Source: a virus
Taxonomy: Duplodnaviria; Heunggongvirae; Uroviricota; Caudoviricetes
Length of the DNA: 28,751 bases
IMG/VR virus record: IMGVR_UViG_2531839664_000032
Strand: one strand, 5' to 3'
Of this stretch, positions 20,901-26,900 are shown one piece after another (the first letter of the stretch is position 1; each line of letters opens with the position of its first letter). A program made the position numbers.

Positions 20901-23900
20901 TCTCTCACCGGTATCAACAATTAACCCAATCTCCATCAGGTGTCGTAAGCTGTCCTGCACAGTCTTTTTGTTCAGTTCCGTTACTTCTGCCAGTGCAGAT
21001 ACAGACGGGTATGCACACAAATCGGCACCGCACATATCAGCAAGCCAGGTCAATACTGACTTACTGGATGAACTGCCGGTTTTCACCTTTTTAGCCCATC
21101 GTAGTGCATCGATACTCATACGAACCCCTGGCAGACATTTGTTTATCTGCAAAGTAATATTGGTATTGCTGACGATACGCGTGCTTGAAAGCAATAGCTT
21201 TTTCTATAAGCTCGTCAGTCTCACGTTCCACAACAACTGGATCCGCAAAAAGCAGCCCGGACTCCACCACATCGCCATATTCTTTGTTTAACCCGGCGAT
21301 CATGTACGTAATGCTTTTTCCGTCAGTAATTTCACAATACAATCTGAAATCGCTGATCCGGATAGCCTCCATAATTGCCGGAATCTGCGCCGTGAATTTG
21401 TCACGCTTATCTCTGGTGTCGATAGCTTTCCAGCGTTCGAATATCTTCACCCGGTTAACGCCCAGCGCCCGTTGATCAACCTCGCCATCATTAAACGTGA
21501 CGCGTTGAACATCGATGTTCGGGCGTTCTTTCAGAGCCCAGAATGCTTCCGTGATTAATATCGTCGCCTGCTCCTGTGTCATTCCTGGTCGGCATACCCA
21601 GGTATCCAGAGCCTCACAAACCTGTTCAGTGGTGATTTTCATTGTTCAACCGCCCCGCCCGCTTTGCCTTACGATATTCGTCATAAACTTTGGGGTCGTA
21701 CTGAAGTTCCCCGCCGGATGCCTCTTGCAGGCGCATCGCGCGACCTTCAGGAACCAGTTCCCCCCATGCAGCAACGCTTGCCAGCCTAACTCCTGCGACA
21801 TTGGCAAGCTTTGTTTTGCTGCCAAAAAACGCTATAGCATCAATTTTCAACATATCGAACCCCTTAGATTTTCCTAAGAAAACTAGATCGTAGAGAAACC
21901 TAAGTCAAGAAAAATTAGAATTACCTAATATGAAAAACGAAACCTTCGGTGCTCGCCTCTTATACAGGCGAAAAAAATTAAAACTGTCTCAGGCCGCATT
22001 AGGTAAGCTGGTCAAAGTGGCTCACGTAACAATTTCTCAATGGGAAAGAGATGAAACACAGCCAGCGGGGAAGAGATTATTCGCACTGAGCCAGGCGCTT
22101 CAGTGCTCGCCGACTTGGCTTCTTTTTGGAGATGAAGATAAGCAACCAGGCGAACCGATCCCAGATAATCAGCCAGTCAATCTGACAGAAGATCAAAAAG
22201 AGTTGCTTCAACTGTTCGACGCACTGCCTGAGTCAGAGCAAAAGGCTCTGTTGTCAGAGATGCGTGCTCGAGTTGAGAATTTCAACAAACTTTTTGAAGA
22301 ACTACTCAAAGCTCGCAAAAGAAGCGCAAATAAATAACCCCCCTTTTTTTCGCAACTCTCTGTAATAAAAAGCACAAACTTTCAAATACTTGTGTTTTTT
22401 ACATCAAGAAGCTTAGGTTTTTCTACACAAAAAGCTTGACCATAACTCTTAGGTTATTCTAAATTCTACTCATCAAGACACCGCACGGTGTTCTCAGCAA
22501 ACAGTTCCGCTACCCGGCGTTAAGGGGAAGCAGAGGATTTCTCAGTGGGCGAAGTCAAACATCAGAATGGAAGGCGTCCAGGGATCAGCAAAGAAACAGC
22601 GATGGCGCTTTATATTGATATCAGCGCCATTGCCGGACAGGTAAGAGTTATCAGAGCGGTAACTAAGCGGTATGCGCCTTTACTTCAGAAAGTCTCTGGT
22701 GAGTGCACCGAAGATATTGTCAACGATTTCGTCATCGAACTGCGAGGACTCATCTTCAGTTACAAGGTGACCACAATTTTTGCAGATGGCTCCCGCGAAA
22801 CTGTCAGAGCCCTGCGGCTTAAAGGATGTGTCAAAGACTTAGCCACCACATTCTGGGCAAGAAAACTTGATTGTATTCATAACCAATTTCCTCTCGAGTA
22901 ACAGACCCCTCAGAGGATACCACCTCGCCTGACGTGGTTAAAAAGCAGGCAACGCTAACCACAAGGAGCCGACATGCAGAAACGAGACCCCGTCATCATC
23001 GCGCCAGACTATACCGATGATGAACTTTATGAGTGGATGCACCAGAAAATTAAGGCGGTGCAGGACCTGAAATGGGCCAATGAAGCCAGGGCTAAGCAGG
23101 CTGAAAATCTGTCCGCTCTGGAGCAGGATATCACCAATCTGGAAAAAGCAGCGGCATTAAGCATTGCCAGAATGATTACATACCACGTTAATAGCTAACC
23201 AACGAGGCTAATAATGGAATTTAAAGATTTACCAACGCCATTACAGGAAATGGCATCGAATATAGTTCGTTCACAACTGGCTACTCTTGACCTTAGTACC
23301 GCAGAAAAAGAAACCATCGATAATATGGTTCGTAATGTGCGCAATGCTTTTTCTGGGCTATATGGTTCTGATAATCAAAAGCAGGAAAGCGATGTTAATA
23401 AACGGGTAATTTCTGTTTGCGTGAATGGCCATGTTCTTTCATCAATCAAAACAGAAACGGCGACAGTCTTCGATTGCCTTTGCATTGTACAGAGCCTTGT
23501 TGATGCCCTGTTTCGTTCAGTGAATTTAGAAAATGATGCAAATCTGCGAGGGCGCATAATAGCACATCCATATGCACATACTTTAGGCTCTGTGGATATC
23601 AAAGATCCCACAAATCTTTAATGAAATAGTTAACGCGAATTGTACTTGCTCTTTCGGTTGCTTTCAGAATACGCGTTGAAACTGCTGGCGGTAATTTGGT
23701 ATTCCATTTATTAAAATCATGCCCGGGAAAGTACTCTTCGAAAATACTTTTAACTGCAGACTCGCCTATTGAAATGCTGCTTACCATGCGATTTTGATAA
23801 AGGCATTTAGCAATAAGAGTTGATTTTAACATTCACCCTCCTGAGGGTTGGTAATTAAGGAGTTCTCCACGGGTGAAGTGGAGTGCGTGCGCCGGACACG

Positions 23901-26900
23901 GGTGAACATCCGGCACTGACAGTTTACTGAAAGGATATTTCTCTGAAAAGTCAGAGCATAACGCGAAAGCGCACGGCGAGGTTGCTGGTTCATAGATAGC
24001 CTGTCGTTAAATTTTCGTCGACCGTGCGCTTCCGGTTGTGGCACTCCGCGAAATGGCGCAGCGGTAAGTATGGCGGGGTTATTCCTTCCCCGTTGAGGAC
24101 ACCGGGTTGTCAGGTTGACCATACGCTTAAGTGACAACCCCGCTGCAACGCCCTCTGTTATCAATTTTCTGGTGACGTTTGGCGGCATCTGTTTGCCCAT
24201 GAACTGATGTCCGCCCTTTTTAAAGTGAATTTTGTGATGCAGTGAATGCGGCTAAGCGCACGCGGAACAGTTAAAGCTAAAAACAGTGTTATGGGTGGAT
24301 TCTCTGTATCCGGCGTTAATTGTTAACTGGTTAACGTCACCTGGAGGCACCAGGCACCGCATCACAAAATTCATTGTTGAGGACGCGATAATGGAAACGT
24401 TATTACCAAACGTTAATACGTCTGAAGGTTGTTTTGAAATTGGTGTCACTATCAGTAACCCTGTATTTACTGAAGATGCCATTAACAAGAGAAAACACGA
24501 ACGGGAGTTATTAAATAAAATATGCATTCTTTCAATGCTGGCCCGTTTACGTCCGATACAAAAAGGATGCTGGCAATGAATACAGCATTTGCACTTGTTC
24601 TGACAGTTTTTCTTGTTTCCGGAGAGCCAGTTGATATTGCAGTCAGTGTTCACAGGACAATGCAGGAGTGTGTGACTGCAGCAACCGAACAGAAAATTCC
24701 CGGTAACTGTTACCCTGTCGATAAAGTTATTCACCAGGATAATAACGAAATCCCGGCAGGTCTTTAAAACAGTTCCGTAATAAACATCCGATTTCATTCT
24801 TATATGCCAGCAATGGCAGGGATTTGTTCACCCTTAAATCTGTAATGAGGTAAAACAAAATGAGTAAAGTCTTTATTTGCGCCGCCATTCCGGACGAACA
24901 GGCAATAAAGGAAGAAGGTGCAGTCGCTGTAGCCACTGCCATTGAAGCCGGTGATGAACGTCGCGCCCGCGCAAAATTTCACTGGCAATTCCTGGAGCAT
25001 TATCCGGCTGCTCAGGACTGCGCTTATAAATTTCTTGTTTGCGAGGATAAACCCGGTATACCCCGCCCTGCCCTCGATTCCTGGGATGCTGAATATATGC
25101 AGGAAAACCGCTGGGATGAGGGGGCTGCTTCCTTTGTCCCGGTTGAGACTGAATCAGATCCGATGAACGTCGCTTTTGACAAGCTGGCCCCTGAAGTACA
25201 GAACGCTGTCATGGTTAAGTTCGACACATGTGAAAACATCACCGTTGATATGGTGATTAGCGCGCAGGAATTGTTGCAGGAAGACATGGCAACATTCGAC
25301 GGACATATCGTTGAAGCGTTGATGAAAATGCCAGAAGTTAACGCCATGTATCCGGAGCTTAAGCTGCATGCCATCGGGTGGGTTAAGCATAAATGTAAGC
25401 CTGGTGCCAAATGGCCCGAAATTCAGGCAGAAATGCGCATCTGGAAAAAACGTCGCGAAGGTGAACGCAAGGAAACCGGAAAATACACGTCTGTTGTTGA
25501 TCTCGCCCGCGCCAGAGTCCACCGACAGCACACTGAAAACTCAGCAGAAAAAATCCCCCCTGTCACTGCAGTCATTCGTCGCGAATATAAGCAGACATGG
25601 AAAACACTGGATGACGAACTGGCCTACGCTCTCTGGCCTGGTGATGTGGATGCCGGAAACATTGACGGCAGCATCCATCGCTGGGCAAAAAATGAAGTTA
25701 TCGACAACGACCGCGAAGACTGGAAGCGTATCTCGGCATCAATGCGCAAACAGCCTGATGCCCTTCGCTACGACCGCCAGACTATTTTTGGCCTTGTCCG
25801 TGAACGTCCGATCGACATTCACAAAGACCCTGTGGCACTGAACAAATACATTACTGAATACCTGACTACAAAGGGCGTGTTTGAAGATGAAGGAACAAAT
25901 CAGAGCGCAACTGACACTCTCTCGTCGCCAGTACCAGAAACTGATGCAGTGGAAACGGCAATTCCGGACAACGAAAAAACCGAATGCAAAGTGGAAGTCG
26001 AACCATCTGTAGAGCGTGAGGGGCCGTTCTACTTCCTCTTCACCGACAAGGATTGCGAAAAATACGGTCGCGCAAACAAACTTTCTGGTCTGGATAAGGC
26101 GCTGGCTGCCGGGGCTACTGAAATCACAAAAGAAGAATATTTTGCCCGAAAAAATGGCACATACACAGGCTTACCGCAAAATGCAAATACCGCACAAAAT
26201 TCTGAACAACCAGAACCGGTAAAAGTTACCGCTGACGAAGTAAAGAAAATTATGCAGGCAGCCAATATCAGCCAGCCTGACGCCAATCAGTTGCTCGCCG
26301 CATCACGTGGTGAATTTGTTGCAGGGATTAGCGACCCGAATGATCCGAAATGGGTGAAGGGGATTGAAACCCGCGATTCTGTGAACCAGAACCAGCAAGA
26401 AACGGAACAGAACGACCAGAAAGCGGAACAAAACAGCCCAAATGCGTTACAAAACGAGCCAGAAACGAAACAGCCTGAACCAGTGGCGCAACAGGAAGTG
26501 GAAAAAGTCTGCACCGCCTGCGGTCAGACCGGCGGCGGCAACTGCCCTGATGGTGGCGCGGTGATGGGCGACGCAACATACCAGGAAATATTCGATGAAG
26601 AGAATCAGCCTGAAGTTCAGGAAAATGATCCGGAGGAAATGGAAGGTACTGCACATCAGCATAAGGAGAACACTGGCGGCAATCAGCATCATGCCAGCGA
26701 TAGTGAAACTGGCGAGGCGTCAGATCCCTTAATTAAGGCGAACAGTCATCATAATCTCACATCCACCAGCAGAGCGGGGATTCATCTGATGATCGACCTT
26801 GAAACCATGGGAAAAAATCCCGATGCCCCGATTATCTCAATAGGCGCAATATTTTTCGATCCGCAAACCGGAGATATGGGACCAGAATTTAGCAAGACCA

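Follow-up and report, generated by a model that had tools for sequence, protein, structure and literature searches.

The window, which is the whole 28,751-nucleotide stretch of viral DNA analyzed here, contains a prophage operon of the dicB type whose genes follow the order dicA-like, small ORFs, untranslated leader, DicF, dicB, ydfD-like and exonuclease. The genes annotated in RefSeq within 3 kb of the leader region are the dicA-like gene, ydfC, genes for hypothetical proteins, dicB, a gene for a DUF1482 protein and the exonuclease gene. A promoter-like site is located at 22436-22465, downstream of the dicA-like gene, and in the active phages mEp460 and Tritos the xis and int genes come after the dicB-type operon genes. 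A neighbouring ORF of 77 aa (23599-23832, minus strand), annotated as a hypothetical protein in RefSeq, lies outside the RNA, antisense inside the operon, and is preceded by a strong AGGAGG ribosome-binding site at 23837-23842. This ORF, which K-12 lacks, matched phrog_10348 (unknown function, E 1e-47) and gave no match in Pfam, NCBIfam or PADLOC.

The leader and DicF together occupy 23833-24221. A reading made from the sequence only had described the leader as rich in stable G+C-rich hairpins, free of plus-strand ORFs and different in composition from its surroundings. The contrast in composition was confirmed, though it is modest: in 150-nt windows the G+C content was 0.46-0.56 over 23800-24174, 0.38-0.40 immediately upstream and 0.35-0.47 downstream. 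Both hairpins cited as examples were located, GCCGGA-cacgggtgaaca-TCCGGC at 23891-23914 and GGGG-ttattcctt-CCCC at 24075-24091. RNA structure prediction, which had been proposed as a check, gave -151 kcal/mol for the 389-nt stretch against a shuffle mean of -129.4 (sd 6.3; z -3.45), and only 1 of 100 shuffles folded as well. As for coding, 23833-24165 is non-coding on the plus strand, and only two short plus-strand ORFs touch the region, one of 36 aa with a GTG start (24024-24134) and one of 30 aa with a TTG start (24115-24207).

The segment 23846-24166 showed 96.3% identity to the untranslated region between ydfC and dicF in the Qin prophage of K-12 (96% of a 334-nt query); in a K-12-derived laboratory strain the match lies between ydfC and dicB. 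Of 5,426 complete E. coli genomes, 4,427 contained the region. Northern blots and primer extension showed that K-12 DicF is processed from the dicBp transcript: a 190-nt species is RNase III-dependent and accumulates on RNase E inactivation, a 53-nt species is RNase E-dependent, and no internal promoter was found (bioRxiv 10.1101/2023.04.14.536235). The ydfC-dicF region of K-12 dicBF and the 190-nt DicF had been treated earlier by Faubladier et al. 1990, and later by Ragunathan et al. 2023 (bioRxiv 10.1101/2023.04.14.536235). The identity to a region whose DicF is processed bears out the proposal of a structured, non-coding DicF precursor of about 330 nt; the region is a known element, the K-12 DicF precursor, with a conserved domain absent from catalogues. 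It shares with K-12 Qin the place before DicF and dicB, the long duplex H4, the core and the linker described below. The window differs from K-12 by a 135-aa ORF and the antisense 77-aa ORF between ydfC and the leader, and also in the first 13 nt, in a G-to-A change in helix P2 of the core (24060) and in the DicF terminator loop.

DicF itself (24166-24221, plus strand) is present as a variant with the 5' seed UUUCUGGUGACGUUUGG, followed by a predicted terminator hairpin closed by GGCGG (24181-24185) and CCGCC (24211-24215) and by a U tract. In the covariance-model search suggested by the sequence-only reading, RF00039 of Rfam aligned full length to 24167-24216 but, at 43.5 bits (E 5e-8), fell short of the 48-bit gathering score; the K-12 copy scored 76.7 bits. 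Alignment showed that the first 20 nt and the GGCGG/CCGCC base are those of K-12, whereas the apical half of the hairpin is CATCTGTTTGCCCATGAACTGATGT in the window and TATCAGTTTTACTCCGTGACTGCTCT in K-12. Thus, of the earlier suggestion that seed or targets may differ from K-12, the difference was found in the terminator loop while the 5' seed is unchanged. A simple terminator scan missed this hairpin because its loop is longer than 8 nt. DicF sits in a dicB-type prophage operon; in the identical RefSeq locus dicB is annotated 170 nt further downstream. The RF00039 family comprises the 52-nt sRNA only, the upstream 330 nt being outside it. Directly upstream of DicF, the single-stranded AU-rich linker GCCCUCUGUUAUCAAU (24150-24165, plus strand) ends at the DicF 5' end. 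Its sequence is that of K-12, in which RNase E cuts at the end of the linker; across lineages the linker measures 12 to about 130 nt. Downstream, the plus-strand untranslated region 24205-24410, which leads up to dicB (ATG 24392), gave a weak STnc100-like match (RF02076, 32.5 bits, gathering score 47, E 4e-5). A third GCGCAC motif was seen at 24253-24265, in the untranslated stretch before dicB.

The 5' part of the leader (module A, 23865-23956, plus strand) is made up of lineage-specific hairpins: H1 (CTCCAC/GTGGAG, 23865-23883), H2 (GCCGGA/TCCGGC, 23891-23914) and the H3 region (23916-23956), which includes CUCUG/CAGAG at 23941-23956. All three were kept in the consensus fold of 20 homologues obtained with RNAalifold; other lineages carry a different hairpin at the H1 site and the H2 loop is variable. 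Phage phiSTEC1589-Stx1c, which encodes N, carries module A without the core. Module A is followed by the long hairpin H4 (23957-24040, plus strand), with a basal duplex of about 22 bp formed by the arms 23957-23978 and 24018-24040. H4 folds to -34.9 kcal/mol (z -2.3), and its arms pair in 56 distinct arm pairs drawn from all lambdoid lineages, with compensatory changes at several positions showing at least 2 pair types, such as G-C 35 / U-A 21 and A-U 45 / G-C 10. A distance of 190 nt counted back from the DicF terminator falls at about 24034, within the 3' arm of H4, a cut position derived from the gel size of the 190-nt species (the paper gives 'positions 813/814' in its own numbering). H4 would thus serve as a duplex substrate for RNase III at a distance of about 190 nt from the DicF 3' end, and we infer that cutting it generates the 5' terminus of the 190-nt species. 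A nut/boxA site for Nus factors was also considered and rejected: no unpaired GCUCUUUA-like boxA preceding a hairpin was found, and the boxA-like UGCUCUCUU (UGCGCUUCC in the window) is the H4 3' arm, covarying with its partner.

Between H4 and the linker lies a core of 115 nt (24035-24149, plus strand), predicted to fold as a four-way junction with a pseudoknot. Helix P1 pairs 24035-24042 with 24142-24149, P2 pairs 24046-24050 with 24057-24061, P3 pairs 24062-24065 with 24101-24104, the variable hairpin P4 pairs 24074-24078 with 24088-24092, and P5 pairs 24105-24112 with 24132-24139 and has an inner GGU/GCU helix (24113-24115 with 24125-24127). The pseudoknot GUAUGG/CCAUAC joins 24068-24073 to 24119-24124. 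Among 83 distinct sequences 96.9% of cells were paired, and both-sided changes occurred at 14 pairs, a number reached by none of 500 shuffles and by no slid control (4 at most); the covariation also held in a MAFFT alignment of 38 sequences. These data support the predicted fold of the core including the pseudoknot, and its numerous G-U pairs assign it to the plus strand. The core by itself is not unusually stable (z -1.4). In the minimum-energy fold of the window's own 190-nt sequence P1 was not formed, a different pairing being favoured by the window-specific G-to-A change in P2. In the consensus fold GUUGUG pairs with the upstream CAUAAC instead of the downstream strand that it meets in P1. 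With the core model R1 each of 87 loci yielded a single copy, as did the 28.7-kb window, and the core gave no family match in Rfam even at E up to 10. The literature found on the K-12 dicBF operon contains no description of this fold or of its conservation. The leader is thus a mosaic whose 3' third is a discrete and deeply conserved domain with a pseudoknot, also found in phage P1, neither of which the sequence-only reading had noticed.

The core is found ahead of DicF-like terminators both in phage P1/P7 and in lambdoid prophages from several genera of Enterobacterales; its sites include Qin-type prophages, cdtI, F1055, prophages of Citrobacter, Trabulsiella, Erwinia and Izhakiella, and Pban of P1. 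It is more conserved than the DicF body, and its loop sequences are near-invariant from E. coli to Erwinia and P1. The core also behaves as a module inserted into or deleted from the P1 hairpin: a natural core-less form lacks 24043-24141 and has a 5-nt loop instead, and about a quarter of the sampled DicF loci lack the core entirely. Since such core-less DicF loci exist, the core is dispensable for making DicF. In phage P1 the 'dicF-like region' (NC_005856, 68791-68892), downstream of the C1-controlled Pban promoters, contains the same core (96.8 bits with model R1, at 2484-2605 of the P1 locus) followed by a hairpin terminator. Because the annotated Pban -10 box is some 45 nt ahead of the core, and the end of the DicF-like terminator about 180 nt past the start, phage P1 would make the same core-plus-DicF unit directly. 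The P1 unit differs from that of the window in that it starts about 20-45 nt after the promoter, lacks the H4 duplex, has a poorly conserved P1 helix and a different sRNA body, and is followed by tRNA genes and ban.

An ORF of 124 aa on the minus strand (23826-24200), overlapping the start of the 77-aa ORF, covers the entire region and had escaped the sequence-only reading. Some phage annotations call an ORF at this position, and minus-strand stop-free spans of up to 150 codons recur in homologues. On the other hand, these spans can be as short as 44 or as long as 150 codons, length differences of +4, +5, +1, -1 and +2 nt between lineages in the P4 segment break any reading frame, and the variation follows base-paired columns with plus-strand G-U pairs. 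The start codon of this ORF falls within DicF and is not preserved in K-12, NCBI's PGAP pipeline does not call it, and its product matched no family in Pfam, PHROG, NCBIfam or PADLOC. The ORF was therefore rejected as a gene, and we consider it highly improbable that it encodes a protein. A retron msr/msd or another reverse-transcribed RNA, for which only the dense G+C-rich hairpins speak, had already been dismissed by the sequence-only reading, and its probability is practically nil: the annotation shows no reverse transcriptase in the 3 kb to each side, the RNase III/RNase E processing of the homologous K-12 region and the conserved processing structures explain the RNA species and the folds, and the element occurs in phage P1 directly after Pban. 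ARAGORN found no tRNA in the window, and Rfam gave no tRNA but only a chance-level mascRNA match (E 9.7). The three points of that reading, a structured processed precursor, a DicF variant and the absence of a retron, are thus supported.

The following order of events is proposed. Transcription would begin downstream of the dicA-like gene, at the promoter under repressor control, and run through the small ORFs into the leader, which would first fold into hairpins H1-H3 and the long duplex H4. RNase III would then cut H4 and free GUUGUGG (24035-24041), until then paired with CAUAAC (23957-23962) at the base of H4, to pair with GCUGCAAC (24142-24149) and close P1 of the core. The product would be the long DicF of about 190 nt, consisting of the core, the 16-nt linker and DicF with its intrinsic terminator, from which an RNase E cut in the AU-rich linker would release the short Hfq-binding DicF. 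As a compact fold that begins almost at the newly made 5' end, the core would be the 5' domain of the long DicF, and may shield this RNA from 5'-end-dependent decay and so set the rate at which active DicF is released. The cut within H4, the refolding from H4 to P1 and this stabilizing or timing role of the core are suggested by the conserved structures and the K-12 RNA species. Taken together, the assignment of 23833-24221 to the untranslated interior of the early-left (dicB) operon transcript of a Qin-type prophage, as the precursor of the DicF sRNA, with this processing order and this role of the core, is the account that we regard as probable. RNase III stems flanking structured RNAs are known from rRNA operons and from the lambda N-leader hairpin. 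The likeness lies in the cutting of a roughly 22-bp duplex, which releases or remodels the RNA that follows; the window differs in that its cut is a predicted one and the released RNA is an sRNA precursor. The near-invariant loops would not be needed in a mere protective cap and hint at a more specific partner.

The core may instead be a cis-acting element like put of HK022, in which the nascent RNA binds RNA polymerase and causes read-through of DicF and later terminators; if so, phages without N protein could express dicB, exo, xis and int. The core is always found in a repressor-controlled early operon upstream of its first intrinsic terminator, exo, xis and int of active phages lie beyond a DicF-type terminator and require read-through, the widely variable distance from core to terminator is as a processive mechanism predicts, and the invariant loops suggest a conserved host partner. 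Where 2.5 kb or more of upstream sequence was available, 0 of 78 core-bearing loci had an N-like gene, against 3 of 26 core-less loci, and in two N-encoding phages the core is deleted or truncated; but most core-less loci (23 of 26, a limited test) also lack an N-like gene. Like putL and putR of HK022, the core is a structured RNA in an early-operon leader, upstream of terminators, in lambdoid phages without N-mediated antitermination. However, put elements, which bind the zinc-binding domain of the RNA polymerase beta-prime subunit to suppress termination, are about 70 nt with two stem-loops and two copies, whereas the core is a 115-nt pseudoknotted four-way junction in a single copy per phage, absent from the rightward operon. 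Model R1 did not match HK022 putL or putR (L009; E up to 10, filters off), the core is 1.6 kb from the promoter in Qin-type prophages, and northern blots of K-12 detected nothing longer than ydfABC-dicF transcripts (bioRxiv 10.1101/2023.04.14.536235). Membership of the put class was rejected, as neither similarity in sequence or structure nor one copy per early promoter was found, and a put-like function is unlikely.

It also seems doubtful that RNase III and RNase E release the core as a stable RNA, about 130 nt long, that acts separately from DicF by binding a host or phage protein or a further RNA, as a decoy, sponge or anti-defence RNA. Its conservation above that of the DicF body, its self-contained P1-closed structure between two processing sites, its modular insertion or deletion inside the P1 hairpin, and its conserved unpaired nucleotides beside a variable peripheral P4, typical of partner-specific RNAs, are consistent with such an RNA; however, in the loci examined the core never occurred away from a DicF-like terminator, and the literature found reports no probe to the core part. 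Still less probable is a riboswitch-like sensor, in which a ligand or protein would stabilize P1 over the pairing at the H4 base and alter termination, Rho access or RNase cleavage. The fold is aptamer-like in that it combines a junction and a pseudoknot with invariant bases in the junction and loops and with a peripheral stem that varies, an intrinsic terminator lies downstream of it, and GUUGUGG has two mutually exclusive partners. Against this, the Rfam search at E up to 10 yielded DicF, STnc100 and chance-level matches but no aptamer, the competing partner is upstream and removed by RNase III, no metabolic gene context points to a ligand, and the spacing between P1 and the terminator ranges over 12 to about 130 nt among lineages, with no conserved antiterminator overlap found. 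A terminator-coupled riboswitch is not supported, since the core matches no known aptamer class in Rfam and has no fixed overlap of closing helix and terminator.

Beyond the stabilizing or timing role preferred above, a less likely reading is that the core, rather than being mere packing around DicF, is a functional phage RNA of a class so far unrecognised, which has a conserved partner specific to it and controls the early-left operon. If this is true, RNA polymerase, a ribonuclease or another host factor would be candidate partners, and the core may control the operon in N-lacking lambdoid and P1-like phages, either through read-through of the DicF terminator or by gating the conversion of long to active DicF after prophage derepression.

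The sequence-only reading had described the leader upstream of DicF as free of plus-strand ORFs, richer in G+C than its surroundings and dense in stable hairpins, and all three points were borne out. No credible plus-strand ORF was found in 23833-24165, which is touched only by frames of 36 aa (GTG start) and 30 aa (TTG start); the G+C fraction of the leader was 0.46-0.56 compared to 0.38-0.40 just upstream, and both hairpins named in that reading were recovered, at 23891-23914 and 24075-24091. The leader and DicF together folded at -151 kcal/mol, with a z-score of -3.45 against dinucleotide shuffles. 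DicF itself (24166-24221) was divergent, as had been proposed: the upper half of its hairpin differs from that of K-12, the 5' seed and terminator base are those of K-12, and the Rfam DicF model, which has a gathering score of 48, matched 24167-24216 with only 43.5 bits. A retron had also been dismissed, and is rejected here because no reverse transcriptase gene is annotated within 3 kb.

A locus identical to that of the window was found in O157:H7 RefSeq genomes, from which the gene order was taken. The gene for a dicA-like repressor (21930-22337) is followed by a hypothetical gene, ydfC (22974-23198), a 135-aa hypothetical gene on the plus strand (23214-23621, phrog_1363), a 77-aa hypothetical gene on the minus strand (23599-23832, phrog_10348) with a strong AGGAGG site, the unannotated stretch 23833-24391, dicB, a ydfD-like gene and the gene for an 823-aa exonuclease. 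The arrangement is that of the early-left operon in a Qin-type lambdoid prophage, and in the active phages mEp460 and Tritos the operon runs on into xis and int, without an N gene. The 334 nt upstream of DicF had matches in 4,427 of 5,426 complete E. coli genomes, with coverage of at least 80% in 3,491. In a K-12-derived strain the identity was 96.3% and the match lay exactly between ydfC and dicF, whereas in the prophage studied here ydfC is separated from the leader by two additional genes, the 135-aa and 77-aa ORFs. The 77-aa ORF runs antisense to the operon that contains it and shares 23 nt with the end of the 135-aa ORF; Pfam, NCBIfam and PADLOC gave no match for either. The leader itself showed no convincing promoter on the minus strand, and the nearest promoter-like site (24326-24299) would read antisense across DicF. 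The dicF-dicB spacer (24205-24410) gave a sub-threshold match to Rfam STnc100 (32.5 bits, gathering score 47). Elsewhere in the window, isrC (14489-14611, minus strand, 150.4 bits) and the sok antitoxin of a hok/sok module (16901-17050, minus strand, 103.9 bits) passed their Rfam thresholds.

In K-12, DicF is found as species of 190 and 53 nt (Ragunathan et al., bioRxiv 10.1101/2023.04.14.536235, confirming Faubladier et al. 1990). The 190-nt species was lost without RNase III and accumulated when RNase E was inactivated, the 53-nt species required RNase E, primer extension revealed the RNase III cut and no internal promoter, and the transcript was found to start at dicBp (bioRxiv 10.1101/2023.04.14.536235). 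An earlier summary differs, ascribing to RNase III a 3' end that yields a 72-nt species. A simple promoter scan of the K-12 locus found no promoter. Counting 190 nt back from the K-12 terminator end leads to position 2689 of that locus (L004), equivalent to window position 24034, in the 3' arm of a long hairpin (H4) and 1 nt before P1, the helix that closes the adjoining core; with a gel-size uncertainty of about 10 nt the 5' end still falls within the H4 arm or the P1 5' strand. [quoted passage not shown]

Breakpoints in partial matches allowed five parts to be told apart, all on the plus strand: module A (23865-23956, hairpins H1-H3), H4 (23957-24040, with a duplex of about 22 bp at its base), the core (24035-24149), an AU-rich linker of 16 nt and, as the last part of the leader transcript, DicF. 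The stems of module A were kept among close relatives, and in other lineages its hairpins were swapped for others. Just 5' of H4, where the window has H1-H3, three loci (L007 at about 2330-2370, L029 and L030) and loci lacking the core (e.g. L154) showed a small apparent H-type pseudoknot of the form CCACC..GCCUG..GGUGG..AAAAGA..CAGGC, of which the core-less loci have a compensated CCCGG/CCGGG version. The CACGGGTGAA repeated in the loops of H1 and H2 was not conserved among homologues, and we therefore treated it as presumably due to chance or a recent duplication.

The H4 arms paired in 56 distinct arm pairs covering every lambdoid lineage sampled, with two-sided changes at several positions (AAAGCGCAC/GUGCGCUU, UGAGAGCA/UGCUCUCU and AAGGCGCA/UGCGCCU); these arm pairs were taken from predicted duplexes and are biased to pairing, but pair types still clearly alternate at fixed positions. 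A boxA/nut reading of UGCUCU(C/U)UU, just before the core, was rejected, as the motif makes up the 3' arm of H4, where it covaries with the opposite arm. A direct repeat, CGCGAAAGCGCACGGCG (23962-23978) and CGCGAAATGGCGCAGCG (24047-24063), 76% identical, appears to have mediated deletions in three loci (L018, L040 and L084) that removed the H4 3' arm and the P1 5' strand.

Comparison of homologues indicates that the core is a four-way junction. Its closing helix is P1 (8 bp); of the other arms, P2 forms a hairpin of 5 bp, P3 (4 bp) bears the variable hairpin P4, and P5 (8 + 3 bp) bears a near-invariant loop. In a MAFFT alignment of 38 distinct sequences 95% of cells were paired and 12 pairs had changed on both sides, and in a model-fitted alignment of 83 distinct sequences the values were 96.9% and 14, although the sequences come mostly from closely related prophages and the cell counts overstate independent events. 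In both cases none of 500 shuffles reached that number of two-sided changes and slid controls gave at most 4 of them; the MAFFT result is the fairer test because the model-fitted alignment leans to structure. G-U pairs were frequent (82 of 83 at one position), indicating that the structure is formed on the plus strand, that of DicF. A pseudoknot may pair six nucleotides of the P5 loop (CCAUAC) with GUAUGG in the P3/P4 internal loop; since it has one covarying pair (U-A 76, U-G 4, C-G 3) and five invariant or near-invariant ones, its formation is plausible and not proven. Phage P1 has GCAUGG and CCAUGC at these places. The invariance of the conserved loops is partly ascertainment, the search patterns having demanded parts of them, and two loci reached through the DicF tail had single changes there. 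In the window P2 is mismatched, and the minimum-energy fold differs from the comparative one. No Rfam family matched the core at E up to 10; a tRNA-like reading was ruled out on this ground and because ARAGORN gave no tRNA. A minus-strand ORF of 124 aa was also rejected, because indels break its frame, its start codon lacks conservation, no protein family was matched and the variation across it tracks the RNA pairs.

With one genome taken per species, a pattern scan recovered the core from Escherichia species, Shigella, Citrobacter, Trabulsiella, Erwinia tracheiphila and Izhakiella, and searches of phages and viral contigs found it in many isolated temperate coliphages, one Salmonella phage, phages P1 and P7 and P1-like plasmids. 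In every case a DicF-like hairpin terminator followed 12 to about 130 nt after the core, with sRNA bodies so diverged that only that of K-12 passes the Rfam threshold. In cdtI- and F1055-type phages a promoter follows the repressor gene, and the core-DicF unit comes a few hundred nt further on. In phage cdtI (L006 2670-2775) and at the equivalent places in L007, L029 and L030, a long hairpin, ACAGAGAAGAGCA...UGUUCUUCUCUGU, stands directly after the DicF-like terminator and stops where the first ORF downstream has its ribosome-binding site; it resembles an RNase III-type leader hairpin. Matches in metagenome bins labelled Bacillota, Veillonella parvula, Collinsella and 'Proteobacteria' (L020, L021, L026 and L024) were on contigs identical or near-identical to E. 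coli prophages or phage P1 and are probably binning contamination. Phage vB_Apl-pPE4, deposited as an Actinobacillus phage, has an E. coli-type dicA/ydaT/kil region and, at L008 2440-2760, a core lacking the P1 5' strand followed by two tandem copies of linker and DicF-like sRNA; judged from this sequence, Actinobacillus looks doubtful as its host.

With the covariance model of the core, each of the 87 loci gave exactly one copy. The sole candidate for a second copy, a weak 17-bit match in phage P1 upstream of tciA (L005 3830-3966), was rejected as a different mosaic, in which an H4-arm-like motif (TGCTCTTTCCGTTGCGG) is joined to GGTGAATGCGGCTAAGCGCACGCGG, a motif also present in the dicF-dicB spacer of the window. 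A scan anchored just after DicF showed that the core is absent from about one quarter of the DicF loci sampled. There GGUUGU(G/A) is joined to C(A/G)AC through a 5-nt loop, indicating that the core is a clean insertion or deletion within the P1 hairpin; in this natural form AAUAA takes the place of window positions 24043-24141.

Points in favour of a put-like antiterminator are the position of the core, its invariant loops and the need for transcription to pass the DicF terminator before exo, xis and int. We consider this function unlikely, as the core is present in a single copy and its model finds no similarity to HK022 put, where short common strings seen by eye had hinted at homology. With three N queries an N-like gene was found in none of 78 core-bearing loci vs 3 of 26 core-less loci, and two N-encoding phages have the core deleted or truncated; this relation is only suggestive, and most core-less loci are also without N, which speaks against the put-like reading. 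It is possible that the core is released as an RNA with a partner of its own, or acts as a sensor, but a classical riboswitch is made less likely by the varying distance between the core and the terminator. Only in K-12-type loci were the energies of a long-range duplex between the core 5' flank and post-terminator sequence more favourable, by about 2 sd, than those of shuffled sequences.

We favour a role of the core in DicF maturation. GUUGUG(G) at 24035-24041 could pair in two ways: with CAUAAC, at the foot of H4, as in the consensus and minimum-energy folds, or with GCUGCAAC, forming P1. The primary transcript should hold H4, which is transcribed first and is much the stronger. Cleavage of H4 by RNase III would remove the competitor of P1, which could then close to give a long DicF with its 5' end almost flush with a compact domain. 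RNase E prefers accessible 5'-monophosphate ends, so that this long DicF should be long-lived, in agreement with the observed accumulation of 190-nt RNA, until an RNase E cut in the linker would set DicF free. The processing scheme is backed by the K-12 experiments; our own inferences are that the cut lies in H4, that the RNA then refolds and that the core is protective. In phage P1 the annotated -10 box of Pban (L005 2453-2458), the core start (about 2484-2501) and the terminator end (2644) imply a terminated primary transcript of about 180 nt comprising the core and a DicF-like hairpin, a layout which supports the long form as a conserved unit.

The element itself is already known, being a near-identical copy of the K-12 DicF precursor, and the phage P1 annotation flags a "dicF-like region". 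On the other hand, the core fold and its conservation beyond DicF were not found in Rfam 15 or the literature examined, although Faubladier and Bouche 1994 may cover part of the conservation. The same holds for the promoter-proximal unit in phage P1, the alternative H4/P1 pairing and the core-bearing and core-less classes.

DicF blocks cell division, rewires sugar metabolism and raises virulence gene expression in enterohaemorrhagic E. coli, and the amount made therefore matters. The 190-nt form, seen since 1990, has been treated as an intermediate in the literature examined; its 5' two-thirds would be a defined pseudoknotted domain, better conserved than DicF itself, and in phage P1 the core-plus-sRNA unit seems to be transcribed straight from a promoter under repressor control. 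The core-less deletion, pseudoknot swaps and H4-arm changes provide mutants that would separate control of sRNA maturation from terminator read-through. Should precursor stabilisation be all that the core does, it would add a neat detail to an established pathway; either way, it is a candidate for a new Rfam family.
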